A stretch of 64,000 nt of DNA from Nitrospirota bacterium (GTDB lineage Bacteria; Nitrospirota; Thermodesulfovibrionia; Thermodesulfovibrionales; UBA6898). The notes below the pieces were generated by a model. The model was given only the letters and a program-made list of their open reading frames with translations. It made no database searches and had not been told where the DNA came from. The DNA lies in assembly GCA_040753635.1 (NCBI GenBank), contig JBFMDL010000001.1, positions 3,714-67,713 on the forward strand, in the 5' to 3' direction. Each line of letters starts with the position of its first letter. Position 1 is the first letter of the stretch. This document shows positions 2,784 through 54,496 of the stretch, piece after piece. Made by a program: the position numbers and the translations under genes.

Positions 2784-3314
2784 TTAAGTCAATTCCTCTA
2801 TAGTTATGTTTTCGTTTGTATAAATACAGATATCAGAGGCGATCTTCATGGCTTTCTCTATTATATCTGTCGCACTCATATCAGTGTTTTCATACAGAGC
2901 CCTTGCCGCTGCCTGTGCATAAGGCCCTCCCGATCCAATTGCTGCAATGCCCTGCTCGGGTTCAATCACATCACCGTTCCCGGATATTATGAATGTATGC
3001 TCTTTATCGGCAATTATCAGAAGGGCTTCGAGCTTGCGGAGAATCCTGTCGGTCCTCCAGTCCTTTGCAAGTTCAACCGCAGCCCTTGTTATATTGCCCC
3101 TGTAAGATTCCAGTTTTCCTTCGAATCTTTCGAACAACGTGAAAGCATCTGCTGTAGCGCCCGAAAAACCGGCTATGACTTTATCTCCATACATTTTTCT
3201 TATTTTTTTAGCATTCTGTTTGAGTACGGTATTACCCATGGTAACCTGGCCGTCGCCGCCGATGGAAACCATGTCATTACGCCTTACACACAGTATGGTT
3301 GTTGCATGAAACAT
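2784..3314 (-). CDS. hslV: ATP-dependent protease peptidase subunit HslV
   Basis: N-terminal TTILCVRR...GGDGQVT and GSGG motifs typical of HslV, at 176 aa. The stop lies 1 nt before the hslU start. Confidence 0.95.
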
Positions 3315-3377
3315 CGCCGCTCCTTTTTTGTTTATTTTATATCTTACAGGAAACCTGCGCTGTCTGTCATTACTTTA

Positions 3378-3397
3378 TGCGATTTAATGCGATTTAA
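3378..3397. repeat. Perfect tandem direct repeat, TGCGATTTAA x2
   Basis: Read directly from the sequence: 3378-3387 equals 3388-3397. It lies 64-83 nt upstream of the hslV start codon on the minus strand. Confidence 0.8.
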
Positions 3398-3413
3398 ACT
3401 TCTGCTTATGCAG

Positions 3414-12880: not shown

Positions 12881-13288
12881 TTATCTTTTATATTCTTTTT
12901 CAACGGTGTCCCGTATCTGTTTTACGGGATATCCTTTTTTGTAAAGTTCGAAAGCCCTAAGGGCCTCCCCTAAACAAATATCTCACATGGAAGCATGGTT
13001 GTCAACATAGCAACTCAATAAACTTTTATGCCTGAAGGCGGGGGACTCTTCGCATTTGCAATAACAGTAAATACTGTCAAGAACCCGGGGGATCTCTTTT
13101 GCCGTATGATAAGCTTTTCTTACATAAGACTCACCGAACATATCAGGATTAAGCGTAGCATTAGTCTCGCCTCTCCTTAGTGACCGGTCATGCCTGCCCG
13201 AAAGACTTTTTTGAGCCCCTTCTGCAGCAAATGCAAAAAGCATCAGCGGGATTATTATCCCGATAATCGTTGATCCCGGCATTTTCAC
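12881..13288 (-). CDS. CYCXC/PCYCGC-motif family protein, probable selenoprotein (in-frame UGA at 12983-12985 read as Sec)
   Basis: GTG start with a GGAGG RBS, a signal peptide and a CYCKC motif. The ORF track stops at TGA, but the frame continues for 33 codons (DICLGEALRAFELYKKGYPVKQIRDTVEKEYKR) to a TAA that sits inside the RBS of the next gene. Readthrough would create a U-D-I-C motif. A hairpin lies 15 nt downstream of the UGA. Confidence 0.6.
12950..12968 (-). promoter_or_regulatory. Candidate SECIS-like hairpin downstream of the in-frame UGA
   Basis: The minus-strand RNA GGAGGCCC-UUA-GGGCUUUC forms an 8-bp stem including G-U pairs. It starts 15 nt after the UGA at 12985-12983. Confidence 0.35.
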
Positions 13289-22371: not shown

Positions 22372-23332
22372 TTTCTCTCCAGTATACAGTCTTTATTTTA
22401 TAACCTTTTGGCGACATCCGCCTGTCAAGAACAGCTGTGATCTTTGCTGACAGTTTGCTGTTTTTTGCAGTGCCGGTAACCTCGACCCTTAAAGTGTTCG
22501 AGGATATCATGTTCAGTCCATACGGAATAAACTGCTGAGGGATGAACCTGAAACCCCCTGCATCACTGTTCCTCTGTTTAAGGACAGCCTCGATCTCTAT
22601 TTCGTTCAAACCGAGCAGCTGCATTGTATCTTTTGAGACCGTATTTATATTGATCTGTCCTCTGCCGAATGTTGTTATCAAAGGGAGCAGAGATCTTATC
22701 TCTTCAGAGCCGCGCATAAAATCAGTCTTTATTCCTTTGACAAGACCCAGTTCTTCGGGAACATCAAAGAGAGCATTCTTTGCCTTGTATGGTTCCGGAA
22801 TATTCTCATAATAATCATCTTCAGCGCCTGACAGATGATGCTCATTGTCCGGGTCCTTCCAGTCCAATATTGAATCGATTATCTCTGTTATCGAATCCTG
22901 CGGAATGCCGGCATACTCGAAAAGTTTCCTGAGCCTTTCCTGGTTCGAAAAATTAATGTTAATCCTGGAATTTTCGTCTGTTATACGGATCTCTATTTCT
23001 CCTTCATCTGTGGACATTCTGCCTGTTAATGGTGTTGCATCGCTGTCGGTCCGGAAATTCCCGTCATTGTCGATAAAGTCGAACGACGGGTCCTTGTCCG
23101 ACATCAGGTAATTCAGGACCTTATGATATCCCGACATGGCCAGATAATATGAGAGCGTTTCCTCTTTCAGGTTATGGGTGCTTGCCGAATTCCATCTTGT
23201 GGAGATCAGGAAATTTACGGCAATTATGCTCAGCATGACCGTGATCCATAAGACCATAATAAGGGCAATGCCATCGTTCCGGACAAATATCAAATTTGAA
23301 ATTCGAATTTTGAAATTCGAATTTTTTTTCAT
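22349..23332 (-). CDS. gspK: Type II secretion minor pseudopilin GspK-like
   Basis: The sequence has G-IALIMVLW..., DENSRININ, ILDWKDPDNE..GAEDDYY and an HhH-like ININTVSKDTMQLLGL. Confidence 0.75.
   Translation of the reverse strand: MKKNSNFKIRISNLIFVRNDGIALIMVLWITVMLSIIAVNFLISTRWNSASTHNLKEETLSYYLAMSGYHKVLNYLMSDKDPSFDFIDNDGNFRTDSDATPLTGRMSTDEGEIEIRITDENSRININFSNQERLRKLFEYAGIPQDSITEIIDSILDWKDPDNEHHLSGAEDDYYENIPEPYKAKNALFDVPEELGLVKGIKTDFMRGSEEIRSLLPLITTFGRGQININTVSKDTMQLLGLNEIEIEAVLKQRNSDAGGFRFIPQQFIPYGLNMISSNTLRVEVTGTAKNSKLSAKITAVLDRRMSPKGYKIKTVYWRESAENTGG
23295..23324. repeat. Perfect 14-bp tandem duplication containing two 12-bp palindromes (AAATTCGAATTT)
   Basis: TTTGAAATTCGAAT at 23295-23308 equals 23309-23322. 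The palindromes lie at 23299-23310 and 23313-23324. The repeat covers codons 3-13 of gspK, just downstream of the gspE stop / gspK start overlap. Confidence 0.85.
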
Positions 23333-25005
23333 AGCTCCACCTGGGTAACCCTAAAAACCTCGTCGATTGTCGTGATGCCTTTTTTCACCTTTTCTATCCC
23401 GTCCTCCCTGAGCGTCCGCATCCCGAGTGAAATCGCCTTGTCCTTTATTTCCTTTACTGTCGCCCGCTTCATTATTAATTCTCTTATTTCATCGGTAATC
23501 GGCAAGACCTCAAAAATGCCGATCCGCCCCCTGTAGCCTGTACCCGAGCAGTAATCGCAGCCTTCCCCGGCCCATAATTCTTTGATATCATAATTAAACT
23601 TGCTCAAAATCTCTTTTGACACCTCCTGCTTTACCTTGCAGTGCCGGCATATTCTCCTGACAAGCCTCTGGGCCATTACGCATATAAGCGTTGAAGAAAC
23701 AAGATAATTCTCTATCCCCATATCCATCAGTCTAGTAATTGCGCCCGGGGCATCATTTGTGTGCAAAGTGCTGAAGATGAGATGTCCTGTCAAGGCAGCA
23801 TGTATCGATATCCCGGCTGTCTCCATATCCCTGATCTCTCCTACCATGATTATATCGGGGTCCTGTCTGACTATGTGTCTAAGGCCGCTTGCAAAAGACA
23901 GGCCTATCTTCGGCCTCACCTGTATCTGATTTATGCCCTGCATAAGGTATTCAACAGGCTCCTCAATAGTTATAATTTTTTTCTCCGGGGAATTGATTTT
24001 GTCAAGAGAGGCATATAGTGTAGTGGATTTGCCGCTCCCGGTAGGCCCTGTTATAAGAATCATCCCGTATGGTTTCTTTATTATCTCCTCGTAGATATTA
24101 AGGATTACCCTGTCAAAACCCAGCTCTTCCAGTGTAATAAATGACGTCTCCTTATCAAGGAGCCTCATCACAATGCTCTCTCCATATATCGTAGGAATGG
24201 TGGAGACCCTTATATCTATCGCTTTACCCGCGATGTTCACCTTGATCCTTCCGTCCTGAGGAAGTCTTCTTTCGGCGATATTCATCTGAGACAACAACTT
24301 GATGCGGGATGATACAGCAGAATACATGCTTACGGGCAGAATCTCTTTTTCATAAAGCACACCGTCAATCCTGTATCTTGCTTTTACGCTCATTTCACCC
24401 GGTTCAATATGTATATCGCTCGCCCTGTCCTTTACGGCATTTTCAATAATTAGATTAACGAGTTGTATAATGCCCTTTTCCTGGGCCATATCCCTTAAAT
24501 GGCTTATCTCACCTGTAAGATCTTCCTGCATGATGTCATCCTGTCTGACATCCTCGATGAGTCTCTGCATAACAGCGCTTCTGGAGCCATGAAGAAATTT
24601 CAGGTGCTGGATAATATCGGTTTTTTTTGCAAGAAAGACGCTCACATCATATCCGAATGAGGATTTCAAGGCTTCTATGCCTTCGGCATTTGCCGGATCG
24701 CCTACAGCTATCTTTAAAACATTGTCTTTGATTTCAACAGGCAAGATCATATTTTTTTCGAGAAAACTGTAGGATATTTTCTCAAGAATTATTTCCTGCG
24801 GGAAATCCTTCATCTCCAGCAACGGCATATTGAACTGTTCGGACAACGCCTTATAAACTTCTTCTTCAGAGCTTGTATCGTCCGTCAGGATCTCTCCGAA
24901 TCTCCTCTCTCCCTTTTCTTCATTTTGAATATCAAGGGTCCTGTCGACGTCAGCCTTTGAAATGAGACCCTTTTTAAACAATATTTCACCGATCTTTTTA
25001 TGCAA
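23329..25005 (-). CDS. gspE: Type II/IV secretion ATPase, GspE/PilB family
   Basis: N-terminal T2SSE_N-like domain, Walker A motif GPTGSGKSTT, Walker B/Asp box, a His box and a C-terminal Cys cluster (CRHC...CDYC). Confidence 0.9.
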   Translation of the reverse strand: MHKKIGEILFKKGLISKADVDRTLDIQNEEKGERRFGEILTDDTSSEEEVYKALSEQFNMPLLEMKDFPQEIILEKISYSFLEKNMILPVEIKDNVLKIAVGDPANAEGIEALKSSFGYDVSVFLAKKTDIIQHLKFLHGSRSAVMQRLIEDVRQDDIMQEDLTGEISHLRDMAQEKGIIQLVNLIIENAVKDRASDIHIEPGEMSVKARYRIDGVLYEKEILPVSMYSAVSSRIKLLSQMNIAERRLPQDGRIKVNIAGKAIDIRVSTIPTIYGESIVMRLLDKETSFITLEELGFDRVILNIYEEIIKKPYGMILITGPTGSGKSTTLYASLDKINSPEKKIITIEEPVEYLMQGINQIQVRPKIGLSFASGLRHIVRQDPDIIMVGEIRDMETAGISIHAALTGHLIFSTLHTNDAPGAITRLMDMGIENYLVSSTLICVMAQRLVRRICRHCKVKQEVSKEILSKFNYDIKELWAGEGCDYCSGTGYRGRIGIFEVLPITDEIRELIMKRATVKEIKDKAISLGMRTLREDGIEKVKKGITTIDEVFRVTQVEL

Positions 25006-30011: not shown

Positions 30012-30204
30012 AAATGCTGTATTGGGCAGCTACCTGCCCTGTTTGTGATATATGAAAAAGTTGATCCGGCAAATTAGATCTTTTGGGAGCCTGCGTAAGT
30101 CGTTGGTGTGCATGTTGCCAATAAGGCAAAAGCCTGAAAACCTCTTCAAGGCACCCACCTATAAAATAGGCGGATCTAATCTTTCATGTACACGGCAGGG
30201 CGGG
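30012..30204 (+). ncRNA. Candidate structured RNA or long structured 5' leader of rarA (class unknown; rod-like, 6S-like shape)
   Basis: A long imperfect closing stem pairs 30037-30070 with 30169-30200 (for example ATGAAA/TTTCAT and GATCCG/CGGATC), and its wobble pairs are G-U compatible on the plus strand only. Internal hairpins are TTGCC-AATAA-GGCAA and GCCTGAA/TTCAAGGC. No plausible coding signal is present. Confidence 0.3.
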
Positions 30205-30406
30205 ATTAATATAACTCTATTAAGGCTGGTGTCTATGGTTTTTATTTTTTTGGGGGAGAAATTTAAAAGAAATACAACAAAAAAGACAATTGAGTCTGAT
30301 CTCTCAGGCTTTTGTATAGATTTCTGTAATAACATTGCTTTTTATAATAAAACTTTTTCACCTCCAAAAGCCTTATTCAAACCATAGTCCGGCCCGGGAC
30401 TAAATA

Positions 30407-34097: not shown

Positions 34098-34179
34098 TAA
34101 CTATCCGACTATTCCAAGACATTCAGCCAAGTTTTTTCTGACAACAGTTCTTTTTTTGTTATATAATTGAAAACTGAAA

Positions 34180-34566
34180 ATGTACTGCTTAAATTGCTCC
34201 ATAGAAAATTCAGAGGGACGGAAATTCTGCAGGGAATGCGGTTCATCTATTATGAATTTATGCCGGAAATGCGGTTTCATTAATTCCCTTACCGACAAAT
34301 ACTGCGGGGGGTGCGGGACAGGTCTCCAGAGTCATAAGAAACCGGCCAGCGAAGACAGTATGTCCCCGGATGAATCTCTTGAAATTTCGGGGAAATATTC
34401 TAAAGATGATATCAGCGAACTGTTTGACAGGCAATCTAAAAGCCGGGATAAAGACGCAAAGAAAAAGGATACAAAGGATACAGATGAGGTCTCCCAGGAA
34501 CTTATTGACCTGATTTTCGGCCCTGATGATAAAGAAAAAACAGAAAAAGACAAAGAAAAAGAGTAA
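34180..34566 (+). CDS. Double zinc-ribbon protein with an acidic/lysine-rich tail
   Basis: MYCLNCS...CRECG...CRKCG...CGGCG followed by a K/D/E-rich C-terminus. Its TAA overlaps the ATG at 34566 (TAATG). Confidence 0.5.
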   Translation: MYCLNCSIENSEGRKFCRECGSSIMNLCRKCGFINSLTDKYCGGCGTGLQSHKKPASEDSMSPDESLEISGKYSKDDISELFDRQSKSRDKDAKKKDTKDTDEVSQELIDLIFGPDDKEKTEKDKEKE

Positions 34567-34772
34567 TGTTTATTCGTGAACTGAACCTCAAGCTCGGTGA
34601 AATACTTATTGAAAAAGGCATAATCAACTGAGACCATCTCGAAACTGCGCTGAAAGAACAGAAGTCCCGCGGGATAGATCAAAAGAGAATCGGCAGTTAT
34701 CTCATAGAACTCGGTTATGTAAGCGAAGAGGATATAACCAATGCTCTCGGCATACAGTTTAATCTCCCGGTT

Positions 34773-36269
34773 ATGCATATTGAGGATCTTCGCATAAAGC
34801 CGGAAGTCATCGATTTTGTCCCTGAAGTCATAGCAAAACGATTCAATATCATACCTCTTTTTAAGATTTCAAATGAACTGACGCTGGCCGTTTCAGACCC
34901 GACTGACATCAACCTGCTGGATATAGTCAGTGCGGAAACTAAATGCAAGGTTATTCCTGTAATAGCCCCGTATTCGGAAATTTCCAGGGCTATCGAAAGG
35001 CATTATTCAAGAAAAATCGAAACCCAGCTTTTTGAAAAGTCGAAAGAATCCGAGCATACAGAGATAAGCAGGTCGGAGATTGAGGAGCTTAAAAGAGCAG
35101 GAGTTGATCTCCCCATAGTGAAAATCGTGGACCGAATTCTCATTGAGGCCGTTGAAGAAGGCGTCAGCGATATCCATATAGAACCACGGGAAGATGCCCT
35201 GACCGTCAGATTCAGGGTTGACGGAATTTTGCATGAATATTTGTCGTATCCTATCAAGATGCATCCCGGTATTGTATCGAGAACAAAAATACTTTCCTCT
35301 CTCGACATATCGGAAAGGCAAAAACCACAGGACGGCCGGATACAGGTCAAGATAGACAACAAGGAAATCGACATAAGAGTTTCCACATTACCCACATATT
35401 ATGGAGAAAAGGTGGTAATGAGATTGCTTAACAGGGCATCCGTAAGGGTCCGGATAGAAGAACTTGGTTTCTCGGAGAGAAATTTCAGCGCTTTCCAGGA
35501 ACTGATTAAAGAGCCTTACGGGATAATACTGGTTACAGGCCCTACCGGAAGCGGTAAAACCACAACACTTTATGCTGCGCTCAACGAAATAAATTCGGTC
35601 GGGAAAAACATCATAACTGTTGAAGATCCGGTGGAATACCAGCTGCCGATAATAAACCAGGTGCAGATTAATCTTAAAAAAGACCTTACTTTTGCGAATG
35701 CATTACGCTCTATTTTAAGACAGGATCCCGATATAATAATGATCGGGGAGATTAGAGACCCGGAGACTGCCTCAATAGCTGCCGAGTCAGCGCTTACAGG
35801 ACATCTTGTTTTCAGCACACTTCACACAAATGATGCGCCGAGTTCGATAACAAGGCTTACGGATATGGGGGTTGAACCCTTTCTGCTTTCGCCATCTCTT
35901 CTGGGGATTATAGCTCAAAGACTCGTCAGAAAAATATGCACTGACTGCAAAGAGGAATACTCGCCAGCTTTACAAGAGCTTGGCGCGGTGGGATTGTCGA
36001 CTCCTGTGGAGAACTTAAAATTTTATAAGGGCATCGGATGTGATAACTGCAGTCACTCCGGGTACAAGGGGAGAACAGGCATCCACGAAATTCTTGTTGT
36101 CGATGAAAGGATAAGAGAACTGATAACCCACAGGGCGTCAGCCGACGTGATCCGTCAGGAAGCTTCAAGGAAAGGTTTTAAGGACATGAGGTTTGACGGA
36201 CTCAAGAAGGTTATTTCGGGCATGACAACTGTGGAAGAACTGCTGAGAGTTACAAGGGATACAAAATAG
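34773..36269 (+). CDS. PilB/GspE-family secretion ATPase (uninterrupted ORF part; the conserved N-terminal domain continues upstream across an in-frame TGA to ATG 34566)
   Basis: Walker A motif GPTGSGKTTT, Asp/His boxes and a C-terminal CTDC...CDNC cluster. Upstream and in frame, MFIRELNLKLGEILIEKGIIN-TGA-DHLETALKEQ...LGYVSEEDITNALGIQFNLPV is a typical T2SSE_N repeat. Confidence 0.85.
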   Translation: MHIEDLRIKPEVIDFVPEVIAKRFNIIPLFKISNELTLAVSDPTDINLLDIVSAETKCKVIPVIAPYSEISRAIERHYSRKIETQLFEKSKESEHTEISRSEIEELKRAGVDLPIVKIVDRILIEAVEEGVSDIHIEPREDALTVRFRVDGILHEYLSYPIKMHPGIVSRTKILSSLDISERQKPQDGRIQVKIDNKEIDIRVSTLPTYYGEKVVMRLLNRASVRVRIEELGFSERNFSAFQELIKEPYGIILVTGPTGSGKTTTLYAALNEINSVGKNIITVEDPVEYQLPIINQVQINLKKDLTFANALRSILRQDPDIIMIGEIRDPETASIAAESALTGHLVFSTLHTNDAPSSITRLTDMGVEPFLLSPSLLGIIAQRLVRKICTDCKEEYSPALQELGAVGLSTPVENLKFYKGIGCDNCSHSGYKGRTGIHEILVVDERIRELITHRASADVIRQEASRKGFKDMRFDGLKKVISGMTTVEELLRVTRDTK

Positions 36270-36290
36270 AGTGTTATGTTAAAATAATCG

Positions 36291-36659
36291 ATGCAGAAGA
36301 AAAAAATCTTAATAGTGGATGATTCGGAACAGACAAGAAAATCACTCAGAGATATACTTGAAAAATATAAATTGAATGTTGTCGGGGAATCAAATAACGG
36401 CGCCGAGGCCATCAAGCTTTTTTCCAGTCTGTCTCCGGATATTATAATGCTCGATATAATAATGCCCCAGCTTGGCGGCATAGAAACATTAAGGATACTC
36501 AGGTCCCTAAACAAGGATGTTAAAATAATCATGGTCAGCGCCCTTGATTCTATGGACAGAGTAAAGGAATGCATGAAAGCAGGCGCAAACCATTATATCC
36601 TGAAGCCTTTTGAAGAAGGAAAGGTGATGGAGATTTTAAAAAAGGTTGCAGGCGTATAG
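36291..36659 (+). CDS. Response regulator, single receiver domain (CheY-like)
   Basis: KILIVDDS, the phospho-acceptor context IMLDIIMP, MVSA and a conserved K (ILKP). The protein is 122 aa. Confidence 0.85.
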   Translation: MQKKKILIVDDSEQTRKSLRDILEKYKLNVVGESNNGAEAIKLFSSLSPDIIMLDIIMPQLGGIETLRILRSLNKDVKIIMVSALDSMDRVKECMKAGANHYILKPFEEGKVMEILKKVAGV

Positions 36660-53773: not shown

Positions 53774-54496
53774 ATGCATCTTCTTGAAGTTAAGGGTCTC
53801 CGTAAAACCTACGGGAAAAAAATTGTTCTGAAAAATATCGATCTCCATGTTGCAACCGGTGAGATAGTCGGCCTGCTCGGCCCTAATGGAGCCGGGAAAA
53901 CAACCAGTTTCTACGTTATGCTGGGACTTATAAGACCCGATAAAGGCAATATCTTTCTTGACAAGGAAGATATAAGCCTCCTTCCCATGTATAAAAGGGC
54001 ATTGAGGGGAATAAGTTATCTGCCCCAGGAACCCTCGATTTTCAGAAGGCTTTCTGTAAAAGACAATCTGAAAGCAGTACTTGAAATTAAGGGACTTTCA
54101 AGGGAAGAAATAGACGTGGAAACAAAACAGCTTCTAAAAGAATTCAATCTTGAGGAATTCTCGAACAGGAACAGCTATGAACTCTCGGGCGGCGAGAGAA
54201 GGCGTGCCGAGATTGCAAGGGCAATTGCAACAAAACCGACTTTTATGCTCTTTGACGAACCTTTTGCAGGTATAGATCCAATAGCAATTATCGAGCTTAA
54301 AAAAATGTTTTCCTATTTAAAGAATAAAGGCCTTGGTATTGTAATCACCGACCATAATGTCAGAGACACGCTCTCGATAACTGACAGGGCTTATATTATA
54401 AACAATGGAGAGATACTCGAAGAAGGCGTCCCTGACAAGCTTATTTCAGCTCCAAAAGTAAAAGAGGCATATCTCGGCGAGGAGTTCAGACTCTGA
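53774..54496 (+). CDS. lptB: LPS export ABC transporter ATP-binding protein LptB
   Basis: Walker A motif GPNGAGKTT, signature LSGGERRR and Walker B MLFDEPFAGIDP. Confidence 0.95.
   Translation: MHLLEVKGLRKTYGKKIVLKNIDLHVATGEIVGLLGPNGAGKTTSFYVMLGLIRPDKGNIFLDKEDISLLPMYKRALRGISYLPQEPSIFRRLSVKDNLKAVLEIKGLSREEIDVETKQLLKEFNLEEFSNRNSYELSGGERRRAEIARAIATKPTFMLFDEPFAGIDPIAIIELKKMFSYLKNKGLGIVITDHNVRDTLSITDRAYIINNGEILEEGVPDKLISAPKVKEAYLGEEFRL

Follow-up and report, generated by a model that had tools for sequence, protein, structure and literature searches.

The DNA analysed here (the window) is a stretch of 64,000 nucleotides (nt) from a Nitrospirota bacterium (GenBank assembly GCA_040753635.1, contig JBFMDL010000001.1, positions 3,714 to 67,713), and the element under study is an in-frame TGA near the 5′ end of a gene encoding a motor ATPase of the pilus/secretion type. 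The TAA stop codon of an upstream zinc-ribbon gene (34564-34566) shares one base with the ATG at 34566-34568 (TAATG), and the frame opened by this ATG comprises 21 sense codons, the TGA at 34629-34631 (codon 22), and 545 further sense codons followed by TAA at 36267-36269. The ATG at 34773 lies in the same frame. The 47 codons from the TGA to 34773 contain no ATG, GTG, or TTG; near-cognate codons in this interval are CTG at 34650, ATC at 34689, and ATA at 34674, 34704, 34734, and 34752. An earlier note on this DNA had described the TAATG overlap, the frame of the TGA, the missing start codons, and the translation, all of which proved exact when the sequence was read again; its quotation of the paralogue at 23329-25005, which reads KIGEILFKKGLISKADVDRTLD, was also right. 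The features of the interrupted gene are as follows (aa, amino acids).

34566-34628 (+), start codon and the 21 codons preceding the premature stop; Met in the aligned column in 62 of 65 orthologues
34590-34661 (+), first 24-residue MshEN motif, K9-Q32, KLGEILIEKGIIN*DHLETALKEQ, cut at a variable (x) position
34629-34631 (+), in-frame TGA, codon 22; 53 of 65 relatives have Arg or Lys here, the other relatives Gln, Pro, Ser, or Glu
34686-34757 (+), second 24-residue MshEN motif, R41-Q64, RIGSYLIELGYVSEEDITNALGIQ, intact; no canonical start between the TGA and the motif
34704-34706 (+), ATA taken as the start of a database protein of 521 aa; codon read in the window sequence
34773-36269 (+), open frame from the first canonical start past the TGA, 498 aa; Pfam T2SSE 470 bits, MshEN 68.9 bits

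The 498-aa frame retains MshEN only in its C-terminal part, followed by the N2 domain and the T2SSE ATPase, and its product contains the Walker A motif GPTGSGKT and a CxxC...CxxC zinc motif. The database protein (P0002, beginning MELGYVSEE) starts inside the second MshEN motif; the choice of ATA lets the annotation get around the premature stop and is not credible as a true start.

Identity of the ATPase and its N-terminal domain

The 567-residue product obtained by reading through the TGA was assigned by Pfam to T2SSE (PF00437, 470 bits, cut-off 24.9) and MshEN (PF05157, 75.3 bits, cut-off 23.1). The earlier note had located the TGA in the first repeat of a T2SSE_N domain. Its N-terminal placement holds, and the domain assignment was refined: the PF05157 model spans only residues 65-150, and the stretch cut by the TGA is the N-terminal subdomain that bears two 24-residue motifs for cyclic dimeric GMP (c-di-GMP). 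The published motif, RLGxx(L/V/I)(L/V/I)xxG(L/V/I)(L/V/I)xxxxLxxxLxxQ, was defined on MshE from Vibrio cholerae (PMC5013675). Residues K9-Q32 and R41-Q64 both match it at all conserved positions, and two c-di-GMP-binding motifs are thus predicted in the N-terminus of the ATPase. Since residues 9-32 fit the motif, the TGA falls at a variable position of motif 1, within the predicted c-di-GMP-sensing four-helix bundle.

Comparison with solved structures gave an E-value of 7.9e-18 for residues 3-146 to the MshEN crystal structure 5HTL. The best matches for residues 9-149 were PilB from Geobacter and PilF from Thermus (E 2e-21 to 2e-28; for the N-terminal ~150 residues, 2.2e-21 to 5TSG and 1.8e-28 to 6F8L). 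Judged from the residue-for-residue alignment with the N-termini of 65 orthologues and with the solved MshEN/GSPII domains, the 207 nt upstream of 34773 are clearly coding, and their 69 codons specify the real N-terminus.

Like V. cholerae MshE (5HTL; Wang et al. 2016, PMC5013675), the window protein combines tandem 24-residue motifs, an MshEN C-subdomain, and a T2SSE ATPase, and motif 1 has the same numbering in both proteins (Arg9-Gln32 in V. cholerae MshE). In contrast to the Vibrio protein, motif 1 of the window protein opens with Lys instead of Arg and is cut by the TGA, the spacer between the motifs has eight residues instead of five, and the gene lies outside a pilus operon, in a module of zinc-ribbon, ATPase, and CheY-like genes. 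The closest solved structures are those of Geobacter PilB (5TSG, 6OLJ, 5ZFR), which has Lys where the window gene has TGA (VITKEQL), and of the GSPII domain of Thermus thermophilus PilF (6F8L; PMC11731258). PilB and PilF are pilus-extension motors encoded together with pilus genes, whereas no pilin, platform, or secretin gene adjoins the window gene.

Codon 22 in orthologues and the origin of the TGA

A large protein search yielded about 65 full-length orthologues, 67-81% identical to the window protein, of which 47 have a length of exactly 567 aa; the nearest relative among 5.8 billion proteins was 81% identical, and the relatives compared include no genome of the window organism's genus. At the position of the TGA the 65 orthologues have Arg (39), Lys (14), Gln (5), Pro (5), Ser (1), or Glu (1), and Cys, Trp, Gly, or a stop was found in none of them. 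Uninterrupted 567-aa orthologues (73-75% identity) with Arg or Lys at codon 22 occur in two related genomes and in three other public ones, and in all five the protein begins at the equivalent of the Met at 34566. The nearest relatives at the DNA level have AGG, AAA, CGC, and AAA at this codon, AGG being that of the closest one. In-frame TGAs observed in paralogues from related genomes turned out to be the ordinary terminal stops of those genes.

The earlier note had left a pseudogene or truncated protein, a sequencing error, and programmed readthrough as options and had suggested a look at orthologues. Since 65 of 65 relatives encode a sense residue, mostly Arg or Lys, the first two are supported, and the TGA looks like a newly arisen nonsense mutation of the ordinary sort, or an error in the sequence, rather than programmed recoding. 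The same comparison answers the objection that orthologues might start at the Met equivalent to 34773 and leave the upstream stretch unconserved: the 69 upstream residues are kept. We consider it slightly better than an even chance (probability about 0.5) that a very recent single-base substitution converted codon 22 into an ordinary opal nonsense codon. The likeliest step is AGA (Arg) to TGA, because AGA and AGG together account for 74% of the Arg codons of this genome; the other candidate is CGA (3%). That the organism truly carries this base is inferred, as are the consequences for expression described below.

The remainder of the gene was evaluated at 239 alignment columns conserved in ≥90% of the orthologues, of which the window copy departs at one. 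This departure lies among the 23 conserved columns of the N-terminal 69 residues, and none was found in the remaining 216. By this measure the window copy surpasses all orthologues (mean of 4.3 departures) in conservation over residues 70-567, and over the N-terminal 69 residues it is typical of them. With the conserved columns nearly intact, neither the N-terminus nor the gene as a whole shows a sign of time spent free of selection, and so few departures point to a young lesion. The gene resembles ordinary bacterial nonsense pseudogenes in that its one stop is confined to this lineage and differs by a single base from a common sense codon (AGA/CGA), its relatives are intact, and recoding signals are missing. 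Unlike ordinary nonsense pseudogenes, the window gene has no secondary decay at all, which leaves an extremely young lesion or none in reality.

The sole departure from a conserved column is at codon 24 (CAT, 34635-34637), where His replaces the Gln found in 64 of the 65 orthologues (Q24H).

Several points weigh against a real and recent nonsense mutation. The TGA is known from one genome, with no same-species sequence in the collections searched, and the base may be a consensus error instead of a mutation. The lack of decay would also be expected under continued selection via readthrough. Finally, Q24H lies only two codons past the TGA. Two oddities this close together raise the suspicion of a local artefact or of a change in several bases at once, and they may share a single local origin, be it a mutational patch or a miscall.

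An artefact of sequencing, assembly, or consensus building (e.g. an allele from a minor strain or a base miscalled locally), with an intact gene and Arg at codon 22 in the organism, is a serious possibility, to which we give distinctly less credence than to the mutation. It would account for the absence of departures at the 216 downstream columns and for the position of Q24H, 6-8 nt from the TGA: both changes would be substitutions to T, and independent mutations are unlikely to cluster in this way. The source also fits, being a metagenome-assembled genome in 185 contigs. This genome measures 3.0 Mb (estimated completeness 100%), and its closest named relatives are metagenome-assembled genomes of the Thermodesulfovibrionia. 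On the other hand, the site lies mid-way on the largest contig (87.8 kb), the assembly holds no duplicate or alternative-allele contig, and neither a homopolymer nor a repeat marks the site as error-prone. Short-read assemblies rarely carry substitution errors in their consensus, which also counts against an artefact.

Exact patterns with NNN at the codon retrieved no same-species sequence, either with 66 nt and 32 nt in metagenome contigs or with 66 nt in genome contigs, and an exact look-up of the 498-aa product gave no match. Two genome-wide censuses of interrupted genes were both noisy, their top scorers being alternative starts (infC, murA, gpmA-like), adjacent genes, and the prfB frameshift. 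One of the two, a rough census of start-less coding stretches after stops, revealed no other nonsense-interrupted gene, a result in favor of an artefact; given the noise of the censuses, it says no more than that genes broken by nonsense codons are uncommon here.

Tests of recoding and translation beyond the TGA

TGA terminates 617 of the 1631 open frames of ≥250 codons in the genome (38%). Release factor 2 (RF2) is encoded as well: its gene, prfB, has the canonical CUU-UGA +1 frameshift site, and the product contains both the SPF and the GGQ motif. TGA is thus a stop read by RF2, and an alternative code with a sense TGA (tables 4 and 25), which the earlier note had thought unlikely, was ruled out. 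The TGA at 54494-54496, cited there as a true stop, indeed ends its gene and overlaps the next ATG. The prfB site itself lies outside the window (G000:C24:~3310-3400) and reads ...CGAGGT TAT CTT TGA T..., with a Shine-Dalgarno-like GAGG upstream and the SPF and GGQ motifs in the frame entered after the shift.

If the nonsense mutation is real, ribosomes would start at ATG 34566, coupled to translation of the zinc-ribbon gene, and RF2 would release the product after 21 residues; consequently, the c-di-GMP-sensing four-helix bundle (residues 1-64) would not be made. The ATG at 34773 lies 141 nt beyond the TGA and has no Shine-Dalgarno-like purine run upstream, a feature shared by about half of the genes of this genome. 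Because this start is distant and lacks a Shine-Dalgarno sequence, most of the ATPase expression would be lost. At best, near-cognate readthrough at background level would supply traces of the full-length protein, and reinitiation at Met70 would supply traces of a 498-aa protein that lacks the sensor. Low expression is expected, and polarity on the downstream receiver gene is possible. The gene would then be a fresh pseudogene or a severe hypomorph in this lineage and not a recoded gene.

Leaky or programmed UGA readthrough, with near-cognate tRNA-Trp or another mechanism yielding a functional amount of full-length ATPase and the stop acting as an attenuator or ratio-setter, appears improbable. 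UGA is the leakiest bacterial stop codon, the N-terminal 69 codons show no relaxed constraint, and, with position 22 varying among R, K, Q, P, S, and E in orthologues, an inserted residue might be tolerated. As expected for readthrough, coding sequence is kept on both sides of the stop; yet the stop itself was found in this genome only and in none of the 65 orthologues. The +4 base is G, which follows 18% of the genuine TGA stops and is thus an unremarkable context, differing from the classically leaky C/A. No opal suppressor tRNA was found in the genome, where the UCA anticodon occurs in tRNA-Sec alone, and RF2 is present and autoregulated. Structure was not evident downstream: the 72 nt past the TGA folded with −14.6 kcal/mol (z = −0.91 versus shuffled sequences), the only local hairpin having a 4-bp stem, and for the 201 nt past the TGA z was +0.07. 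The suggestion of the earlier note that regulated readthrough sets the ratio of full-length to truncated ATPase finds no support in these results. A stronger version, in which the UGA is real, fixed, and read through at a meaningful rate, forming a translational throttle on an orphan MshE-like ATPase predicted to sense c-di-GMP, with a sensor-less form made by reinitiation at Met70, is still less probable and would be a surprise. If true, bacterial stop-codon readthrough would have newly evolved here as a means of setting the dosage of a second-messenger receptor.

Equally hard to credit is a deliberate start at Met70 (34773), by which the lineage would have come to make a short ATPase that no longer senses c-di-GMP. 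Many related genomes encode natural paralogues of 510-516 aa whose starts correspond to residues 68-79 of the window protein, and 51 of the 65 orthologues have Met70. A truncated architecture is therefore viable, and a product started at Met70, resembling these short paralogues, could fold without sensing c-di-GMP. However, the distance of 34773 from the stop and its missing Shine-Dalgarno-like sequence do not suggest an adapted start, and the upstream 207 nt, now useless, are still perfectly conserved, leaving no time for adaptation to a short form. A start at Met70 would in any case be a possible consequence of the nonsense mutation rather than an origin of its own.

Selenocysteine at codon 22 can be practically discounted: the machinery is present (tRNA-Sec at C69:9307-9404; selB, 397.9 bits, and selA, 619.1 bits, both above cut-offs) and the window itself holds a probable selenoprotein gene, but none of the 65 orthologues has Cys, codon 22 falls on a variable residue in a helix motif for ligand binding and not on a redox site, Rfam gave no match at the ATPase TGA, and a hairpin resembling a selenocysteine insertion sequence (SECIS) is absent, as the earlier note had remarked in disfavoring selenocysteine (z = −0.91, compared with −2.04 for the selenoprotein gene at 12881-13288 (−), the positive control for folding). 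This control is a CYCXC-type candidate with a GC-rich hairpin after its TGA at 12985-12983. A frameshift or bypass was ruled out by the codon-for-codon collinear alignment across the stop, window product and orthologues both having 567 residues. A split gene was likewise rejected: the break occurs 21 residues in, inside motif 1, no start follows, and no relative is split.

The three-gene module and the meaning of the interruption

The ATPase gene is the second of three genes that form a module at 34180-36659 (+); the features around the ATPase gene are as follows.

34138-34167 (+), best sigma-70-like promoter match, CTGACA-18-TATAAT; 11 of 12 hexamer positions, consensus match only
34180-34566 (+), gene for a double zinc-ribbon (DZR) protein of 128 aa; Pfam DZR PF12773, E 1.3e-9
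36291-36659 (+), stand-alone CheY-like response regulator, third gene of the module; Pfam Response_reg, E 8.8e-30

The promoter-like site is likely the start of a three-gene operon. It ends 12 nt ahead of the zinc-ribbon ATG, where no Shine-Dalgarno sequence is present; with the promoter this close, the first gene of the operon may use a very short or absent leader. The module recurs in relatives from the Thermodesulfovibrionia and Nitrospirota (loci L002, L003, L013, L014, and L033-L036) with an ATPase identity of 73-81%. At all orthologue loci examined the CheY-like receiver comes after the ATPase, and the zinc-ribbon gene precedes it wherever the upstream DNA sufficed (L002, L003, L013, L014, L035, and L036), its stop commonly overlapping the ATPase start. 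The ATPase locus is bounded by RNase Y/YmdB and a convergent JAMM/ThiF pair, and neither at the window locus nor at those of the relatives do pilus or secretion genes adjoin the module.

Elsewhere in the window, a 6S/SsrS RNA was identified at 30028-30210 (+) by a full-length match to Rfam RF00013 (82.2 bits). It accounts for the region of rod-like structure that the earlier note had pointed out upstream of rarA, and the overlapping open reading frame of 111 aa (30052-30387) is probably spurious.

The finding is ordinary, a premature stop in a single uncultured genome. For annotation, its value lies in flagging the gene as interrupted and a possible pseudogene, and in avoiding protein calls of 498 aa (from ATG 34773) or 521 aa (from ATA 34704); the gene is unsuited to lists of selenoprotein or readthrough candidates. 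Its biological weight is small: it is either a fresh loss-of-function allele of an ATPase predicted to respond to c-di-GMP, or a base error. The more interesting object, and a separate finding, is the module of zinc-ribbon protein, MshEN-ATPase, and CheY-like regulator that occurs without nearby pilus genes.

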